Under the pieces are notes generated by a model that saw only the letters and a list, made by a program, of their open reading frames with translations, was not told the DNA's origin and did not search any database. A program made the translations under genes and the position numbers. From an uncultured Lachnospiraceae bacterium (GTDB taxonomy: Bacteria > Bacillota > Clostridia > Lachnospirales > Lachnospiraceae), in assembly GCA_964500085.1 (NCBI GenBank), contig CAZCON010000001.1:1-25952 (forward strand): a stretch of DNA of 25,952 nt, in the 5' to 3' direction. Numbering within the stretch: position 1 is the first letter of the stretch; each line of letters begins with the position of its first letter. Of the stretch, positions 12,541 to 19,478 are shown one piece after another.

Positions 12541-12638
12541 TTCCTGCTCCGGAGCTGATAAGAGGACGGTTCCATTTGTTAATCGAAATGGGTTAGAAAA
12601 AAGCTAGGAACCGCAGAATGAGACGGTGGAGGATGCCT

Positions 12639-13208
12639 ATGGAGGATTATAGGTTAAATGACAAGGATATCCGCAGGGTTATCTATGACAGCTTCTCCGG
12701 CAGTAAGGAGGAAACGCGTATTTTAGAAGAGTTTCCGATGGGGGACAGCCGCGCGGATATGCTTTTGGTGACAAAGACAAGGCTTATCGGACTGGAAATC
12801 AAAAGCGACAGGGATTCCTTTGAACGGCTGGCAAGACAGATAAAGGATTACGAGAGGTTTTTTGATACGAATTATCTTGTGGTTGGCACCTACCATGTGG
12901 AAGAAGCGATGCGTACCGTACCGGCACACTGGGGCATTTATGAAGTATATGAAACGGCGGAGGGAGGCTTTGTCATGGAGTGCGTCCGCAGTGCCTCTAT
13001 GGCATTAAAGGATAACACGGAAGAAAAGCTGTACCTTTTGTGGCGGAACGAACTGATGCGGATTGTAAGAGACTACCGCCTTGCAAAGGGCAGCCTGCAG
13101 CGGAAGGATAAAATGATAAGCAAAATCATCCGTGGTCTGGCCGTGCCGGTAATCCAGACTGAAATCTGCGCGGCACTGCTTGCAAGGGAATATTCCGTGA
13201 AAGGGTAA
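12639..13208 (+). CDS. sce7726-like protein with a PD-(D/E)xK-like motif
   Basis: EEF...SRADMLLV...GLEIKSDRDSFERLARQIKDY...WGI pattern. Start moved to ATG 12639 (RBS GGAGGA). The family call is from recognising the pattern and was not searched. Confidence 0.7.
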   Translation: MEDYRLNDKDIRRVIYDSFSGSKEETRILEEFPMGDSRADMLLVTKTRLIGLEIKSDRDSFERLARQIKDYERFFDTNYLVVGTYHVEEAMRTVPAHWGIYEVYETAEGGFVMECVRSASMALKDNTEEKLYLLWRNELMRIVRDYRLAKGSLQRKDKMISKIIRGLAVPVIQTEICAALLAREYSVKG

Positions 13209-13434: not shown

Positions 13435-13564
13435 GGGAAACCTCCGGAATAAAATTTGGAAGCGGTCGTTTGCTTCCTTTCCATAAAGTGTAACACAGTT
13501 TTGAAAAAAATGCATTCTTTTTTGCAACGACAGGAATAATTTGAAAAAAAGAGAGGATACTATT

Positions 13565-14161
13565 ATGAATCTGGTACAACGCTTTTTTGGACATCTTCAT
13601 ACCATCAATCAGCATAAGCGTACCGTGATGAAGCATTGCTTTAAGCTTGGCTTATATAAAAGAGGGCTTTTGCATGATTTGTCCAAGTATTCGCCAAGTG
13701 AATTTTTTGTGGGAGTGAAATATTTCAGAGGAGACGTAAGTCCCAATAACATTCAGAGACAGGCGGAGGGCGTGGCAACGGCATGGCTGCACCATAAGGG
13801 AAGAAATAAACATCATTATGAATATTGGATTGATTATAAAAAGGATGCGGAATGTGAACTTGCGGGTATGAAGATGCCGCTTCCGTATGTGCTTGAAATG
13901 TTTTGCGACCGGGTGGCGGCAAGCAAGGTATATAACAAAGAAAAGTATACGCAAAAGGACCCGTTGGCCTATTATCGCAGAGGTGAGGGCAAGTATCTGA
14001 TGCACGAGGAAACCGTTGCACTTTTGGAAAAGCTGCTGGTGATGCTGGCAGAAGAAGGAGAGGATACCACATTTTCCTATATTCGGAGGGAGCTTCTGGG
14101 AAAGAGGGAAACGCGTAGAAAAAAGTCCAAGGATTGCCATGGATTTTGTAAAAAAGGATAA
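13565..14161 (+). CDS. DUF5662-like HD-type metal-binding protein
   Basis: H..TI..HK, LHDLSKYSP.EF, AWLHHKGRNKHHYEYWID, EMFCDR. RBS GAGAGGA before ATG 13565. Confidence 0.75.
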   Translation: MNLVQRFFGHLHTINQHKRTVMKHCFKLGLYKRGLLHDLSKYSPSEFFVGVKYFRGDVSPNNIQRQAEGVATAWLHHKGRNKHHYEYWIDYKKDAECELAGMKMPLPYVLEMFCDRVAASKVYNKEKYTQKDPLAYYRRGEGKYLMHEETVALLEKLLVMLAEEGEDTTFSYIRRELLGKRETRRKKSKDCHGFCKKG

Positions 14162-14190
14162 TTGCTTTTTGAGGGGAAATGTAGTATAGT
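14162..14190 (+). promoter_or_regulatory. SigA-type promoter of the pfl operon
   Basis: TTGCTT-N17-TATAGT, immediately after the upstream stop codon. Confidence 0.6.
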
Positions 14191-14241: not shown

Positions 14242-16334
14242 ATGCAGGAAGAATGGAGAGGTTTTAAATCAGGTGTTTGGGAACGGGAGATTAACACAAG
14301 AGACTTCATTCAGAAGAATTTTAGCCCTTACGAGGGGGATGAGTCCTTTTTGGCAGGCTCGACTGCTGCAACCAAGGCGCTCTGGGAACAGGTATTAGAG
14401 CTGTCAAAGAAAGAGCGTGAAGCCGGTGGCGTGCTGGATATGGATACCAGTGTGATTTCTACCATCACTTCGCATGGACCGGGCTATTTAGATAAATCAA
14501 AGGAAACGATTGTAGGTTTTCAGACGGACAAGCCATTTAAGCGTTCCTTACAGCCTTACGGCGGGATTCGTATGGCGGCGAAGGCGTGCAGCGATAACGG
14601 ATATACGATTGACCCGCAGGTGGAGGAGTTTTTTACCGTACACCGTAAGACACATAATGCAGGTGTGTTTGACGCGTATACGCCGGAGATGCGCGCGTGC
14701 CGTTCCAGTCACATTATTACGGGACTTCCTGATGCTTACGGAAGAGGGCGTATTATCGGTGACTACAGAAGAGTTGCACTGTACGGTGTAGACCGCCTGA
14801 TTGAGGATAAGCAGGACCAGAAGGATTCTACCAGAACGATTATGTACTCTGACGTAATCCGTGACCGTGAGGAGCTTTCGGAGCAGATTCGTGCATTGAA
14901 GGATTTAAAGAAGCTTGGCGAAATTTATGGCTTCGATATTGGCAGACCGGCAAGAAACGTACAGGAGGCAATTCAGTGGCTGTACTTTGGGTATCTTGCG
15001 GCAGTGAAGGAGCAGAACGGTGCGGCAATGTCTCTTGGCAGAACCTCTACCTTCTTAGATATTTACGCACAGCGTGATTTGGCAGAGGGACGCTTTACGG
15101 AGGAACAGATTCAGGAATTTGTGGATCATTTTATCATGAAGCTTCGTTTGGTAAAGTTTGCAAGAACACCGGAGTACAATGCGCTGTTTTCCGGCGACCC
15201 GACGTGGGTAACGGAGTCCATTGGCGGTATTGGCATTGACGGCAGACCGATGGTGACAAAGATGTCCTTCCGTTATCTGCATACCCTGCAAAATCTTGGT
15301 GCAGCGCCGGAGCCGAACATGACCGTGCTTTGGTCTACCAGACTGCCGCAGGCGTTTAAGCGCTATTGTGCACAGGTTTCCATTGAATCCTCCTCCATCC
15401 AGTATGAGAACGATGACCTGATGCGTGTGACGCACGGAGACGATTATGCGATTGCATGCTGCGTGTCCTCAATGCGTGTGGGAAAGGAGATGCAGTTCTT
15501 TGGCGCAAGGGCAAATCTTGCAAAGTGTCTTCTTTATGCCATCAACGGCGGTGTGGATGAGATTACGAAGAAGCAGGTGGCGCCGGAGTACCGTCCGATT
15601 ACTTCCGAGTATTTGGATTATGACGAGGTAATGCACAAGTACAATGAGATGATGAAGTGGCTTGCGCGCGTTTATGTCAATACGCTAAATATTATTCATT
15701 ATATGCATGACAAGTATTGCTATGAGAAGCTGCAGATGGCGTTGCACGATAAGAAGGTAACCCGTTGGTTTGCAACCGGTATTGCGGGACTTTCCGTTGT
15801 GGCAGATTCTCTTTCTGCAATCAAGTATGCCAAGGTAAAGGTCATCCGTGATGCGGATGGAGTTGCGGTGGATTATGAGGTAGAGGGAGATTTTCCAAAG
15901 TACGGAAACGACGATGACCGGGTAGATGAAATTGCAAGAGAGGTGGTACACACCTTTATGCAGATGTCAAAGGAAATCATACCTACCGCGGCGGTATTCC
16001 GACTACCTCCATCCTTACCATTACTTCGAATGTCGTATATGGTAAAAATACCGGTTCCACTCCGGACGGACGTAAGGCAGGACAGCCGTTTGCACCGGGG
16101 GCAAACCCGATGCACGGCAGAGACGCGCACGGCGCAATTGCCTCTCTGGCTTCGGTATCCAAGCTTCCGTTCCGTGATGCGCAGGATGGTATTTCCAACA
16201 CCTTTACGGTAGTTCCGGGAGCACTTGGAAGAGACCAGGTGGTAATTTCCGGTGATTTGGCAGTAGAATTGGGCGAGGGCTGTTGTACGCCGGGTCCGCA
16301 GAATGCAGAGCCGGAGTATGGCACCGCAGAATAG
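14242..16334 (+). pseudogene. pflB: Pyruvate formate-lyase catalytic core lacking the glycyl-radical domain, with an apparent 1-nt deletion at ~15964 (frameshift or sequencing error)
   Basis: PFL motifs [28 protein letters not shown] and the active-site IACCVS lie in the 14242 frame. After ...HTFMQ the PFL sequence continues in another frame ([53 protein letters not shown]...[12 protein letters not shown]) to TAG at 16332-16334. Inserting one T after 15963 gives MQYVKGNH and a 697-aa protein. Confidence 0.9.
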
Positions 16335-16349
16335 AAAGGAGCAGTAGCT

Positions 16350-16589
16350 ATGGCTGATATGGCGCAGATTGATAATCTGGTGGCGTTACTGGATGGGTAT
16401 GTAGAGCAGGGCGGACACCATTTGAATGTAAATGTATTGAACCGTGAGACGCTTTTAGACGCACAGGCGCATCCGGAAAAGTATCCGCAGCTGACGGTAA
16501 GAGTTTCCGGCTATGCGGTAAACTTCAATAAGCTAAATAAGGAGCAGCAGGACGAGGTGATTTCCCGTACCTTCCATGAGGTGATTTAA
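16350..16589 (+). CDS. Stand-alone glycyl-radical domain (autonomous glycyl radical cofactor, GrcA-like)
   Basis: 79 aa: [48 protein letters not shown]. Own RBS AAAGGAG 8 nt upstream; TAATG overlap with pflA. Confidence 0.92.
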
Positions 16590-17419
16590 TGCAGGGCTAT
16601 GTACATTCGGTGGAAAGCTTCGGAACCGTGGACGGTCCGGGGGTACGCATGGTAATTTTCTTTCAGGGCTGCCCGATGCGGTGCGCTTATTGTCATAATC
16701 CCGACACCTGGGGAATGCAGCGGGGGACACTGATGACGGCAGACGAGCTGCTCCGGCAGTTCCTTCGTAATCGCGGCTACTATAAAAACGGCGGCATTAC
16801 GGTGACGGGAGGAGAACCGCTCTGCCAGATGGAGTTTTTGCTGGAGCTGTTTCGCAAGGCAAAAAAACAGGGGATTTCCACCTGCCTTGACACCTCCGGA
16901 ATTATGTTCCCGTATCGTAAGGGCGTTTCCGGCTGGGAAAAGGCAGAGAGCGGCATTCAGGAAACAATCAGACGTTATGGCGTACTTGTTCCGCTATCGG
17001 AGTATGAGGAGCTGCTTTCCGTGACAGATTTGGTGCTGTACGATGTAAAGCATATGGAGGAGGAAAAGCACCGGGTGCTGACGGCACATTCCAATAAAGC
17101 GGTATTTGCTTTTTTGGAATTTCTGGCAGAGCATAAGACGCCGGTATGGATTCGGCGTGTGGTGGTGCCGGGGGTGACGGACGATGCGGAGGAATTGTTT
17201 CGGCTCGGAGAATATATCGGCGGTTTTTCGAATGTACAGGCAATCGAGGTATTGCCTTACCATACGATGGGAAAGGCGAAATACGATGCTCTTGGAATCA
17301 GATATCGTCTGGAGGGGGTACCACAGGCGGACAGGGAAGAGGCAAGGGCAGCCAGAGAGCATATTTTAAATGGAATCAGAAAGCGCCGGAGCACAGATGG
17401 CGTTTTCAATAAACGATAA
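16589..17419 (+). CDS. pflA: Pyruvate formate-lyase activating enzyme (radical SAM)
   Basis: HSVESFGTVDGPGVR, CPMRCAYCHNPDTW (CxxxCxxC), GGITVTGGEP, DTSG, VLPYHTMGKAKY. Confidence 0.95.
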   Translation: MQGYVHSVESFGTVDGPGVRMVIFFQGCPMRCAYCHNPDTWGMQRGTLMTADELLRQFLRNRGYYKNGGITVTGGEPLCQMEFLLELFRKAKKQGISTCLDTSGIMFPYRKGVSGWEKAESGIQETIRRYGVLVPLSEYEELLSVTDLVLYDVKHMEEEKHRVLTAHSNKAVFAFLEFLAEHKTPVWIRRVVVPGVTDDAEELFRLGEYIGGFSNVQAIEVLPYHTMGKAKYDALGIRYRLEGVPQADREEARAAREHILNGIRKRRSTDGVFNKR

Positions 17420-17426
17420 GTAACGC

Positions 17427-17469
17427 GTGCAGCTTATTAGAAATACTAATAAGCTGCACAATTTTTTTT
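17427..17469 (+). terminator. Rho-independent terminator of the pfl operon
   Basis: Perfect 14-bp stem GTGCAGCTTATTAG-aaata-CTAATAAGCTGCAC followed by AATTTTTTTT. Confidence 0.88.
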
Positions 17470-18302: not shown

Positions 18303-19478
18303 ATGAAAGAATTTGAGTTAAAGTACGGCTGTAATCCGAACCAGAAGCCGTCCCGAATTTATATGGAGGATGGTGAACTCCCGATTACCGTATTGAATGG
18401 CAGACCGGGCTATATCAATTTCCTGGATGCGTTTAACGGCTGGCAGTTAGTAAGCGAGTTAAAGAAGGCAACCGGACTTCCGGCAGCCACCTCCTTTAAG
18501 CATGTTTCTCCGGCAGGTGCAGCAGTCGGACTTCCGTTAACGGACGTTGAGAGAAAGATTTACTGGGTGGACGACATGGGCGAGCTTACTCCGCTTGCAA
18601 GTGCGTATGCGAGAGCAAGAGGTGCAGACCGTATGTCCTCCTTTGGCGATTTTATTGCGCTTTCCGATGTCTGTGACGAGTGTACCGCACGTATTATCAA
18701 GCGGGAGGTATCCGATGGCGTAATTGCTCCGGGGTATACGCCGGAGGCGCTTGCCGTATTAAAGGAAAAGAAAAAGGGCGGCTACAATATTATTGAAATC
18801 GACCCGGCGTATGTGCCGAAGCCGCTGGAACGCAAGGAGGTATACGGTATTACCTTTGAGCAGGGAAGAAACGAGTTAAAGGTGGACGATGAGCTGCTTT
18901 CCAACTTTGTGACCACAAATAAGGAGCTTCCGGAGGCAGCACGCATTGACCTGATTATTTCTTTGATTACGTTAAAGTATACGCAGTCCAACTCCGTGTG
19001 CTATGTAAAGGGAGGACAGGCGATAGGTATCGGCGCAGGACAGCAGTCCAGAATCCATTGTACCAGACTTGCCGGCAGCAAGGCAGACAATTGGTATCTC
19101 CGTCAGAATCCGAAGGTATTAAAGCTTCCGTTCCTTGATAAAATCGGCAGGGCAGACCGTGACAATGCCATCGACCTTTACATTGGTGAGGATTACATGG
19201 ATGTATTGGCAGACGGTGCGTGGGAGCGTATTTTTAAGGAAAAGCCGGAGGTCTTTACCAGAGAAGAAAAGCGTGCATGGCTTGATACGCTGACTGACGT
19301 GGCACTTGGCTCTGACGCGTTTTTCCCATTTTCAGACAACATTGAGCGCGCATACCGCAGCGGCGTTAAGTACATTGCAGAGCCGGGCGGCTCCGTAAGA
19401 GATGACCTTGTTATTGAAGCAGCGGACAAGCATGACATGGTAATGTGTTTTACCGGAATCCGTTTATTCCATCACTAA
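18303..19478 (+). CDS. purH: AICAR transformylase, monofunctional (PurH C-terminal domain only)
   Basis: KYGCNPNQ, GYINFLDA, SFKHVSPAGAA, KYTQSNSV, GIGAGQQSR, SDAFFPF, RLFHH. 391 aa, with no N-terminal IMPCH/MGS domain. Confidence 0.92.
   Translation: MKEFELKYGCNPNQKPSRIYMEDGELPITVLNGRPGYINFLDAFNGWQLVSELKKATGLPAATSFKHVSPAGAAVGLPLTDVERKIYWVDDMGELTPLASAYARARGADRMSSFGDFIALSDVCDECTARIIKREVSDGVIAPGYTPEALAVLKEKKKGGYNIIEIDPAYVPKPLERKEVYGITFEQGRNELKVDDELLSNFVTTNKELPEAARIDLIISLITLKYTQSNSVCYVKGGQAIGIGAGQQSRIHCTRLAGSKADNWYLRQNPKVLKLPFLDKIGRADRDNAIDLYIGEDYMDVLADGAWERIFKEKPEVFTREEKRAWLDTLTDVALGSDAFFPFSDNIERAYRSGVKYIAEPGGSVRDDLVIEAADKHDMVMCFTGIRLFHH

Follow-up and report, generated by a model that had tools for sequence, protein, structure and literature searches.

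We conclude that the window, by which we mean the whole stretch of 25,952 nucleotides analyzed here from an uncultured Lachnospiraceae bacterium, very probably carries a three-gene operon encoding a two-chain pyruvate formate-lyase (PFL). PFL is a central fermentation enzyme of gut anaerobes, their most abundant glycyl radical enzyme, and the textbook example of such enzymes, and to our knowledge all mechanistic work on it rests on the single-chain protein of E. coli. In the window, the catalytic core and the radical-bearing module are encoded by separate genes, and comparison with relatives and with independent assemblies confirmed that this split is natural and not an artefact.

All features of the locus lie on the forward strand. 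The core gene is preceded by a promoter-like site (14134 to 14162; TTGCCA, 17 nt, GATAAT), a pattern match only, which agrees with the consensus at 10 of 12 positions. The core is read in two pieces: a 5' piece (14242 to 15963), which matches the Pfam PFL-like domain (2.9e-212) and contains the catalytic Cys-Cys pair, and a 3' piece (15966 to 16232), which continues in a shifted frame from GANPMHGRD to PGALGR. At 15963 to 15964, one T is absent. This T is present after 15963 in 18 of 18 sister species, and a sequence re-check against assembled contigs from four independent gut metagenome runs, belonging to four studies, found it inserted behind 15963 in every case. The frameshift is private to the window assembly, whose source genome is a fragmented bin of 465 contigs, 77% complete. 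Were it real and not an assembly error, the core of the window strain would be broken.

Once mended, the core comprises about 697 amino acids and covers Pfam PFL-like positions 4 to 647, followed by positions 1 to 49 of the 106 positions of the Gly_radical domain. It reaches 1090.4 bits on the TIGR01255 equivalog profile (cut-off, 994.2; positions 2 to 671 of 744), and its C-terminal 60 codons are under strong purifying selection (dN/dS = 0.042 in the genus comparison). The adjacent catalytic cysteines, C418 and C419 in E. coli, are present within IACCVSS (codons at 15457 to 15462) and are invariant, as C406 and C407, across 41 split cores. An earlier note on this DNA had claimed that bridging the frameshift would not bring back the radical motif. 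Indeed, the mended core runs beyond PGALGRD for 32 further residues to a TAG stop (16332 to 16334), no RVSGY occurs on this polypeptide up to 16334, and the motif is found on a separate 79-aa ORF.

That ORF (16350 to 16589) has its own ribosome-binding site, AAAGGAG (16335 to 16341), 8 nt ahead of the ATG at 16350, and is coupled to pflA by a TAATG junction in which its TAA (16587 to 16589) and the pflA ATG (16589 to 16591) have one base in common; both features, already part of the earlier description, are read directly in the sequence. Throughout the genus, TAATG or TGATG is kept at this junction. The pflA gene (16589 to 17419) encodes a PFL-activating radical SAM enzyme of 276 aa with a CX3CX2C motif, assigned by Pfam Radical_SAM and Fer4_12 and by TIGR02493 (278.1 bits; cut-off, 231.75). 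A terminator-like hairpin with a stem of 14 pairs and a T run behind it (17427 to 17469) closes the operon, and the terminator scan found no such site on the forward strand inside the three genes.

The small protein corresponds to residues 681 to 759 of E. coli PflB. Since its residues 6 to 77 align to PflB 681 to 757 (1H16), the break falls between ALGKD and NL..L.DGY, where the earlier note had put it. It matches Gly_radical positions 51 to 106 (Pfam, 1.1e-23), bears RVSGY at residues 51 to 55, with the radical glycine G54 encoded at 16509 to 16511, and has no cysteine. Strong purifying selection acts on its gene (dN/dS = 0.026, genus comparison). With 161.5 bits it passes the NF038360 cut-off of 158, and it falls under the cut-offs of the GrcA/YfiD family TIGR04365 (96.5 bits; cut-off, 170) and of GrcA2 (101.9 bits; cut-off, 145); only its residues 20 to 77 align to GrcA (68 to 125). 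The NCBIfam name for the protein is autonomous glycyl radical cofactor GrcA3, and its close homologs bear the same name in public records. Somewhat more distant homologs occur in Blautia, Roseburia, and Clostridium sp.

The layout is conserved within the genus. Stop, ribosome-binding site, and ATG are retained in 18 of 19 sister species, together with the tail and a spacer of 12 to 17 nt, and AAAGGAG or AAAGGGG directly follows the stop in every sister species with the split. A continuous ORF across 16236 to 16350, which the earlier note had named as evidence against a natural split, was found in no relative, and the contigs of the four runs show no letter changed, inserted, or deleted across this interval.

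The break, as had also been proposed, is not a simple nonsense mutation, in that a tail, a stop, a ribosome-binding site, and a new N-terminus are inserted. The tail (16233 to 16334, 33 codons and the TAG) is acidic and contains a Cys pair. Nothing in E. coli PflB corresponds to it, so that its earlier description as non-homologous is right with respect to that enzyme. The description does not extend to the relatives, where the tail is conserved: it measures 33 codons in 18 of 18 sister species, with an invariant GCC.P and the TAG retained, and its dN/dS in the genus comparison is 0.29. It is predicted to be disordered (pLDDT of about 26 to 33 in a model of the core alone) and lies outside the confident interface of the modeled complex. 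One might guess that it acts as a flexible tether or a recognition element for the small chain.

In many relatives a third small gene with a Cys motif lies between the two halves, and in others the motif is carried on the core tail. The sequence comparison suggests that the genus tail belongs to this variable Cys-bearing insertion, which is partly a third small gene in other genera. At the position of the motif, the window genus has only GCC.P, versus C..AC.[IV]P[NT]L..G.D elsewhere in the split clade. When a profile of the motif was run on the genus tails, 264 of 500 shuffled tails scored at least as high as the lowest-scoring real tail, and the top shuffled score equaled that of the best real tail, 8.2 bits. 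With profile scores no better than those of shuffled tails, we do not claim that the genus tail is homologous to the wider Cys motif and retain the positional resemblance alone.

The pflB-small gene-pflA order that the earlier note mentioned for other Gram-positive genomes does occur in many of them. A survey of the family with one genome per genus (301 genomes) detected a stand-alone GrcA3-type ORF in about 121 of these, or ~40% of the sampled genera. The phylogeny against fused PFL, proposed in the same note, unites all 53 split loci, together with 3 fused forms bearing the insertion, in one clade (SH-aLRT, 99), inside which the window genus forms a group with 100% support. The small gene lies downstream of a shortened core in 53 of the 53 split loci examined, and in other genera 100 to 430 nt or a whole extra gene separates the halves.

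It is possible, though on the unlikely side, that the split is a neutral fragmentation of the gene: a surface linker would have received an insertion that gained a stop and a start, and the enzyme would work as before, with no oxygen-related or regulatory benefit. This neutral origin fits a break site that is a variable linker, with 12 to 24 extra residues in the fused relatives L069, L070, and L071, and it fits the predicted disorder of the tail. It is further favored by the frequent switching between two-gene and three-gene forms, with at least five to six changes forced by well-supported branches, and by the occurrence of fused forms with the insertion at three separate places inside the split clade. 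Against it stands the TAG, present in 18 of 18 genus loci. The two ORFs share a frame in 7 of these loci, the window included, separated only by the TAG and 3 to 5 codons; there, one base change in the TAG would fuse the genes, and yet the TAG is kept despite a dS of about 0.9. Moreover, the layout persists over more than 100 genera and comes with either a conserved Cys motif or an entire third gene. As read from these comparisons, TAG retention, spread, and the Cys motif argue for selection without proving a benefit.

We consider it very unlikely that the small protein serves as a genuine spare part and repairs an oxygen-cleaved, full-length PFL encoded elsewhere, the shortened core being a relic. 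The name attached to NF038360 suggests such a role, as do matches to the GrcA2 and GrcA profiles at E-values of 1e-29 and 1e-27, and some family members do have both fused and split PFL (G153, G204, and G015, for example). Nevertheless, in seven of the nine sister genomes with hits (G007, G003, G012, G009, G016, G019, and G005), the split pair is the only TIGR01255 match; of the other two, G015 has a fused PFL and G001 an extra partial PFL at a contig edge. In the window genome, at its 77% completeness, a search for a second PFL returned as the only other Gly_radical match the C-terminus of NrdD, beside NrdG on contig C223. Because most sister genomes lack a full-length PFL to repair, the small protein would be an obligate part and not a spare one. 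The purifying selection on the core and its score above the PFL equivalog cut-off, the constant pairing of the small gene with a shortened core, and the absence from the small protein of the roughly 60-residue disordered N-terminus of YfiD also speak against the spare-part role.

It is extremely unlikely that the cell nevertheless makes a single fused protein, whether by reading through the TAG, by frameshifting, or by protein splicing: the common frame in the window and six sister loci would allow it, whereas in 11 of the 18 genus loci the two ORFs lie in different frames (spacers in the genus measure 12, 14, 15, or 17 nt), every locus has a strong ribosome-binding site and an ATG, long stretches or an extra gene part the halves in other genera, and an intein has no room. 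Since no more than 7 of 18 loci have both ORFs in one frame, read-through cannot be the general mechanism, and we ruled out read-through or recoding on this varying frame relation. It is equally improbable that the locus results from faulty assembly or is a decaying pseudogene, as the frame break at 15963 and the fragmented source genome might suggest, given that the frame break is missing from the four independent assemblies and all relatives, that every one of these does have the stop and the restart, and that purifying selection acts on both the small gene and the core end.

The two-chain enzyme was also modeled, as the earlier note had advised, with the intact core and small proteins of G016. 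The complex obtained an ipSAE of 0.94 versus 0.00 for the best control, a value that may only recall the solved single-chain PFL fold; as for the ipSAE mark applied, 51 of 78 solved complexes attain it, against 2 of 108 mismatched pairs. The modeled interface takes in the Cys-Cys loop (406 to 408) and the RVSGY loop (46 to 58), and in the model of the core alone most of the complex's interface segments have low confidence. In the assembly that we propose, the core would contribute the barrel with its catalytic Cys-Cys pair and the radical domain's first half, and the 79-aa protein would add a docking helix, the final strand of the barrel, the glycine-bearing RVSGY loop, and the helix at the C-terminus, seated in the core like residues 681 to 759 of single-chain PFL. 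PflA, translationally coupled to the small gene, would put the radical on G54, and the assembled pair would cleave pyruvate to acetyl-CoA and formate. We infer that the two chains form an active complex, that PflA can activate a small chain that is free or loosely bound, and that the split allows the part cleaved by oxygen to be replaced on its own. As the earlier note had suggested, oxygen damage might then cost no more than a replaceable subunit of 9 kDa. A bolder and rather doubtful proposal is that the radical module is an exchangeable subunit, charged by PflA off the enzyme and swapped after oxygen cleavage, with the Cys-bearing tail, or elsewhere a third small protein mimicking the docking helix, serving as a placeholder, a tether, or a radical-quenching partner during the exchange.

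E. coli PflB with GrcA/YfiD (1H16 and 6OWR) and Y06I of phage T4 likewise involve a separate RVSGY module that the PFL activase accepts as a substrate and that complements a PFL body without a working radical domain. In E. coli, however, the body is an enzyme of full length, on which GrcA acts only once oxygen has cleaved it, whereas the body in the window never has the module. The proteins differ as well: GrcA/YfiD has about 127 aa and the window protein 79 aa, and the latter has a PflB-like docking helix (residues 6 to 19) in place of the disordered N-terminus of YfiD, which promotes binding to damaged PFL (PMC8683613). The window ORF is a member of GrcA3 (NF038360), a name that implies a spare part, whereas the sequence data point to an obligate subunit next to a shortened core.

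An engineered E. coli pair also resembles the window enzyme in being two-chain, with a cut that lies no more than about 15 residues from the natural break. Andorfer et al. (2021) combined tPFL (residues 1 to 695) with truncYfiD (61 to 127) and obtained a kcat like that of the wild type once the radical was installed (PMC8683613). Binding of YfiD to the truncated core was too weak to detect, and activation was 32-fold lower than for the O2-cleaved enzyme with YfiD (PMC8683613), so that a split at this place is not automatically efficient. Compared with that pair, the natural small chain extends about 15 residues further at its N-terminus, and the natural core ends in an additional Cys-bearing tail; either difference could offset the weak binding and activation. 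Benzylsuccinate synthase (beta and gamma subunits) and 4-hydroxyphenylacetate decarboxylase (gamma subunit) are also multichain glycyl radical enzymes with small Cys-containing partners (PMC13450708), but their glycine is on the large chain and their small chains bind iron-sulfur clusters, whereas in the window the glycine is on the small chain.

The split layout is conserved and half-annotated by databases, and we found it in no paper. Literature searches under GrcA3, under the cofactor name with Lachnospiraceae, and under split or separate PFL yielded no description of a natural two-gene PFL and no paper using the name GrcA3, and none of the 12 papers listed, out of 6,063 that matched a search with gut genus names at least in part, describes the split layout in its title or abstract. 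A 2026 review of glycyl radical enzymes mentions YfiD alone as a separate radical module (PMC13450708). Where annotation pipelines label the small gene as a spare part and treat the core as an ordinary PFL, the enzyme is described wrongly for a large share of Lachnospiraceae-type genomes, and PFL gene counts in metagenomes may therefore be distorted. A natural two-chain PFL that is the sole form in many species bears on how the activase reaches a buried glycine, on what decides the binding of the radical module to the PFL body, a puzzle since the 2021 truncation work in E. coli, and on whether subunit exchange can repair oxygen damage. If the exchange of the radical module is true, the PFL of gut anaerobes would have a built-in repair cycle.

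The window carries three closely spaced genes on the + strand, which encode a pyruvate formate-lyase (PFL) core, a small radical-module protein and PflA, with a promoter-like site on their 5' side (14134-14162, +) and a strong terminator-like hairpin on their 3' side (17427-17459, +). With its frame break bridged, the core exceeded the cut-off of the PFL equivalog model TIGR01255 (1090.4 versus 994.2 bits) while covering only profile positions 2 to 671 of 744, and its Pfam domains consist of PFL-like and only positions 1 to 49 of the 106-position Gly_radical. The core extends 33 residues beyond ...PGALGR, a tail that E. coli PflB does not have, and ends with a TAG (16332-16334, +), directly followed by AAAGGAG (16335-16341, +). 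Eight bases past this motif, at 16350 (+), starts a 79-aa ORF that holds Gly_radical positions 51 to 106 and the RVSGY motif, the radical glycine of which (G54) is encoded at 16509-16511 (+). Residues 6 to 77 of this small chain align with residues 681 to 757 of E. coli PflB, and only residues 20 to 77 align with GrcA (residues 68 to 125), also called YfiD, the spare-part protein for O2-cleaved PFL. The pflA start overlaps the stop of the small ORF (TAATG), and PflA scored 278.1 bits on TIGR02493 (cut-off, 231.75). Domain searches, the reading of ORFs, ribosome binding sites and junctions, and alignment to E. coli PflB confirmed all the sequence statements on which the earlier note had based its proposal of a naturally split PFL at 14242-17419. 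Of note, PflA (16589-17419) has 276 residues, about 40 beyond the 235-position PFLA model, which matches it in two stretches, the first at residues 4 to 109 (profile positions 1 to 108).

Alignment to relatives showed that one T is missing after 15963 in the window, which breaks the frame of the core. This T is present in 18 of 18 sister species, i.e., members of the window's genus, and all contigs from four public gut-metagenome runs, from four different studies, have a T put in behind 15963; these contigs share ≥99% identity with the window and belong to the same species. The frame break at 15963/15964 is therefore private to the window assembly, a bin of 465 contigs at 77% completeness, and is separate from the split of PFL; it arose from either an error in the consensus or a private mutation.

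A continuous ORF across 16236-16350, which the earlier note had named as the observation that would speak against a split, was found neither in the four metagenome runs, which contain no indel or changed letter there, nor in the relatives, 18 sister loci of which keep the stop and the restart, an outcome that speaks for the split. The whole 901-bp junction region was matched in 18 of 19 sister species, and in all 18 the tail has 33 codons, including an invariant GCC.P, and ends with TAG. AAAGGAG or AAAGGGG stands directly past this stop, the spacer before the ATG measures 12 to 17 nt, and the small gene meets pflA in TAATG or TGATG. Read-through is ruled out as a general mechanism, since the core and the small ORF share the same frame in only 7 of the 18 genus loci. 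The TAG is kept in all seven of these, although one substitution in it would fuse the genes and the genus has diverged by ∼0.9 synonymous substitutions per site. Pairwise dN/dS of the small gene was 0.026; the final 60 core codons ahead of the tail gave 0.042 and the tail itself 0.29. These ratios are rough because dS is close to saturation.

Seven sister genomes (G007, G003, G012, G009, G016, G019, and G005) match the PFL model nowhere other than in the truncated core and the small ORF. In G001, one additional partial match lies at the edge of a contig. G015 combines a canonical fused PFL with contig-edge fragments that may be part of a second, split copy, and G014 has no PFL-model match. In the 77%-complete window genome, no glycyl-radical match was found besides the split PFL except NrdD, accompanied by NrdG. 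Since the split pair is the only PFL in most sister genomes, a full-length PFL that the small protein could repair is absent from the majority of them, and the small protein is probably a subunit rather than a spare.

Modelling of the intact core (697 aa) with the small chain (79 aa) of G016, the closest relative, gave an ipSAE of 0.94 in three runs, versus a maximum of 0.00 among three controls; 51 of 78 solved complexes and 2 of 108 mismatched pairs attained that mark. The modelled interface takes in the Cys-Cys loop (core residues 406 to 408) and the RVSGY loop (small-chain residues 46 to 58), and the tail (core residues 666 to 697) lies outside its confident part. Modelled alone, the core is confident over most of the barrel and low at most segments that contact the small chain (311-324, 401-411, 594-598, and 619-635), as well as from residue 649 to the C terminus, a stretch that contains the tail. 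As the structure of single-chain PFL is already solved, the model speaks to the PFL fold, which the two chains are predicted to be able to re-form, and not to binding in the cell.

Experimentally, the closest parallel comes from work on E. coli YfiD, in which PFL truncated at residue 695 and truncated YfiD displayed a wild-type-like kcat once the radical was installed (PMC8683613). No binding between these partners could be detected, and their activation fell 32-fold short of that of the O2-cleaved enzyme with YfiD (PMC8683613). The natural break lies ∼15 residues earlier, so that the small chain retains the PflB-type helix 681-695, and the natural core has an added tail. We infer that this helix and the tail may supply the recognition absent from the artificial pair.

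In a phylogeny of the core sequence as far as the junction, for which 60 further loci were retrieved, 53 of 53 split loci and three fused proteins with a junction insertion formed a single clade (SH-aLRT, 99), outside which fell 23 canonical fused PFLs with a fixed 24-residue junction. The three fused proteins, L069 (from G246), L070 (G167), and L071 (G249), are single chains with an insertion of 12 to 24 residues exactly at the split site; the insertion of L070 includes a Cys cluster. The placement of the three proteins at separate points inside the split clade suggests secondary re-fusion as a putative direction of change.

Outside the window's genus, 15 of 36 split loci have an additional 55- to 89-residue ORF that separates the core from the small gene (L022:2163-2417 and L023:2099-2311, from other genera, and 13 further among L027-L058). 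Its N terminus is similar to the small chain's docking helix (e.g., IDDIVSMLDSFM..GGGHMN.V) and its C terminus carries the motif C..AC.[IV]P[NT]L..G.D. In 18 other loci, devoid of the middle gene, a cysteine motif is found on the core tail, as C..AC.[IV]P[NT]L..G.D in about ten and as shorter Cys-Cys variants in the others; neither feature is present in the remaining three loci. Loci with two genes and loci with three intermix in the core tree. The window's genus has the two-gene form, with only GCC.P at the motif position, and its relation to the wider motif is treated as positional only, because shuffled tails scored as high as the genus tails against a profile of the motif.

The small protein already has an NCBIfam model, NF038360, "autonomous glycyl radical cofactor GrcA3," a name used in public records. 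In a family sample of 301 genomes (the window's own and 300 more, one per genus), this model matched 130 at E ≤ 1e-40, nine of which had the match inside an open frame of 748 to 789 aa, i.e., a fused protein; a stand-alone ORF of 80 to 150 codons occurred in about 121 of the 301. Canonical single-chain PFL (profile positions 1 to 744) is present in many of these genomes, some of which have both kinds. Outside the family, the stand-alone form was found in three genomes of a phylum-wide sample of 400 (G408, G525, and G663) and in one more, G035, from the same order. Some family members have two stand-alone GrcA3-type genes, among others G183 (C1:5040586-5040816), G075, G123, G288, and G107.

The PFL operon is preceded by a 196-aa ORF that matched no Pfam family (12618-13208) and a 206-aa DUF5662 protein (13541-14161). 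Directly downstream are an IMP cyclohydrolase-like protein (PF07826; 17493-18287) and a 391-aa protein (18303-19478) that matches only positions 76 to 311 of the AICARFT/IMPCHase model; the last two purine steps therefore appear to be carried by two proteins rather than by a bifunctional PurH.

Our literature search found no paper with the name GrcA3 or describing a constitutively split PFL, and a 2026 review of glycyl radical enzymes mentions only YfiD as a spare part (PMC13450708). As far as we found, the split PFL is half-annotated in databases and undescribed in papers. A neutral "gene in pieces" is a serious rival as the reason why the split exists, not as an account of what the genes do. 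The two-gene PFL is real, conserved, and almost certainly functional, and an economy under oxygen would be a reasonable, if putative, rationale for its division.
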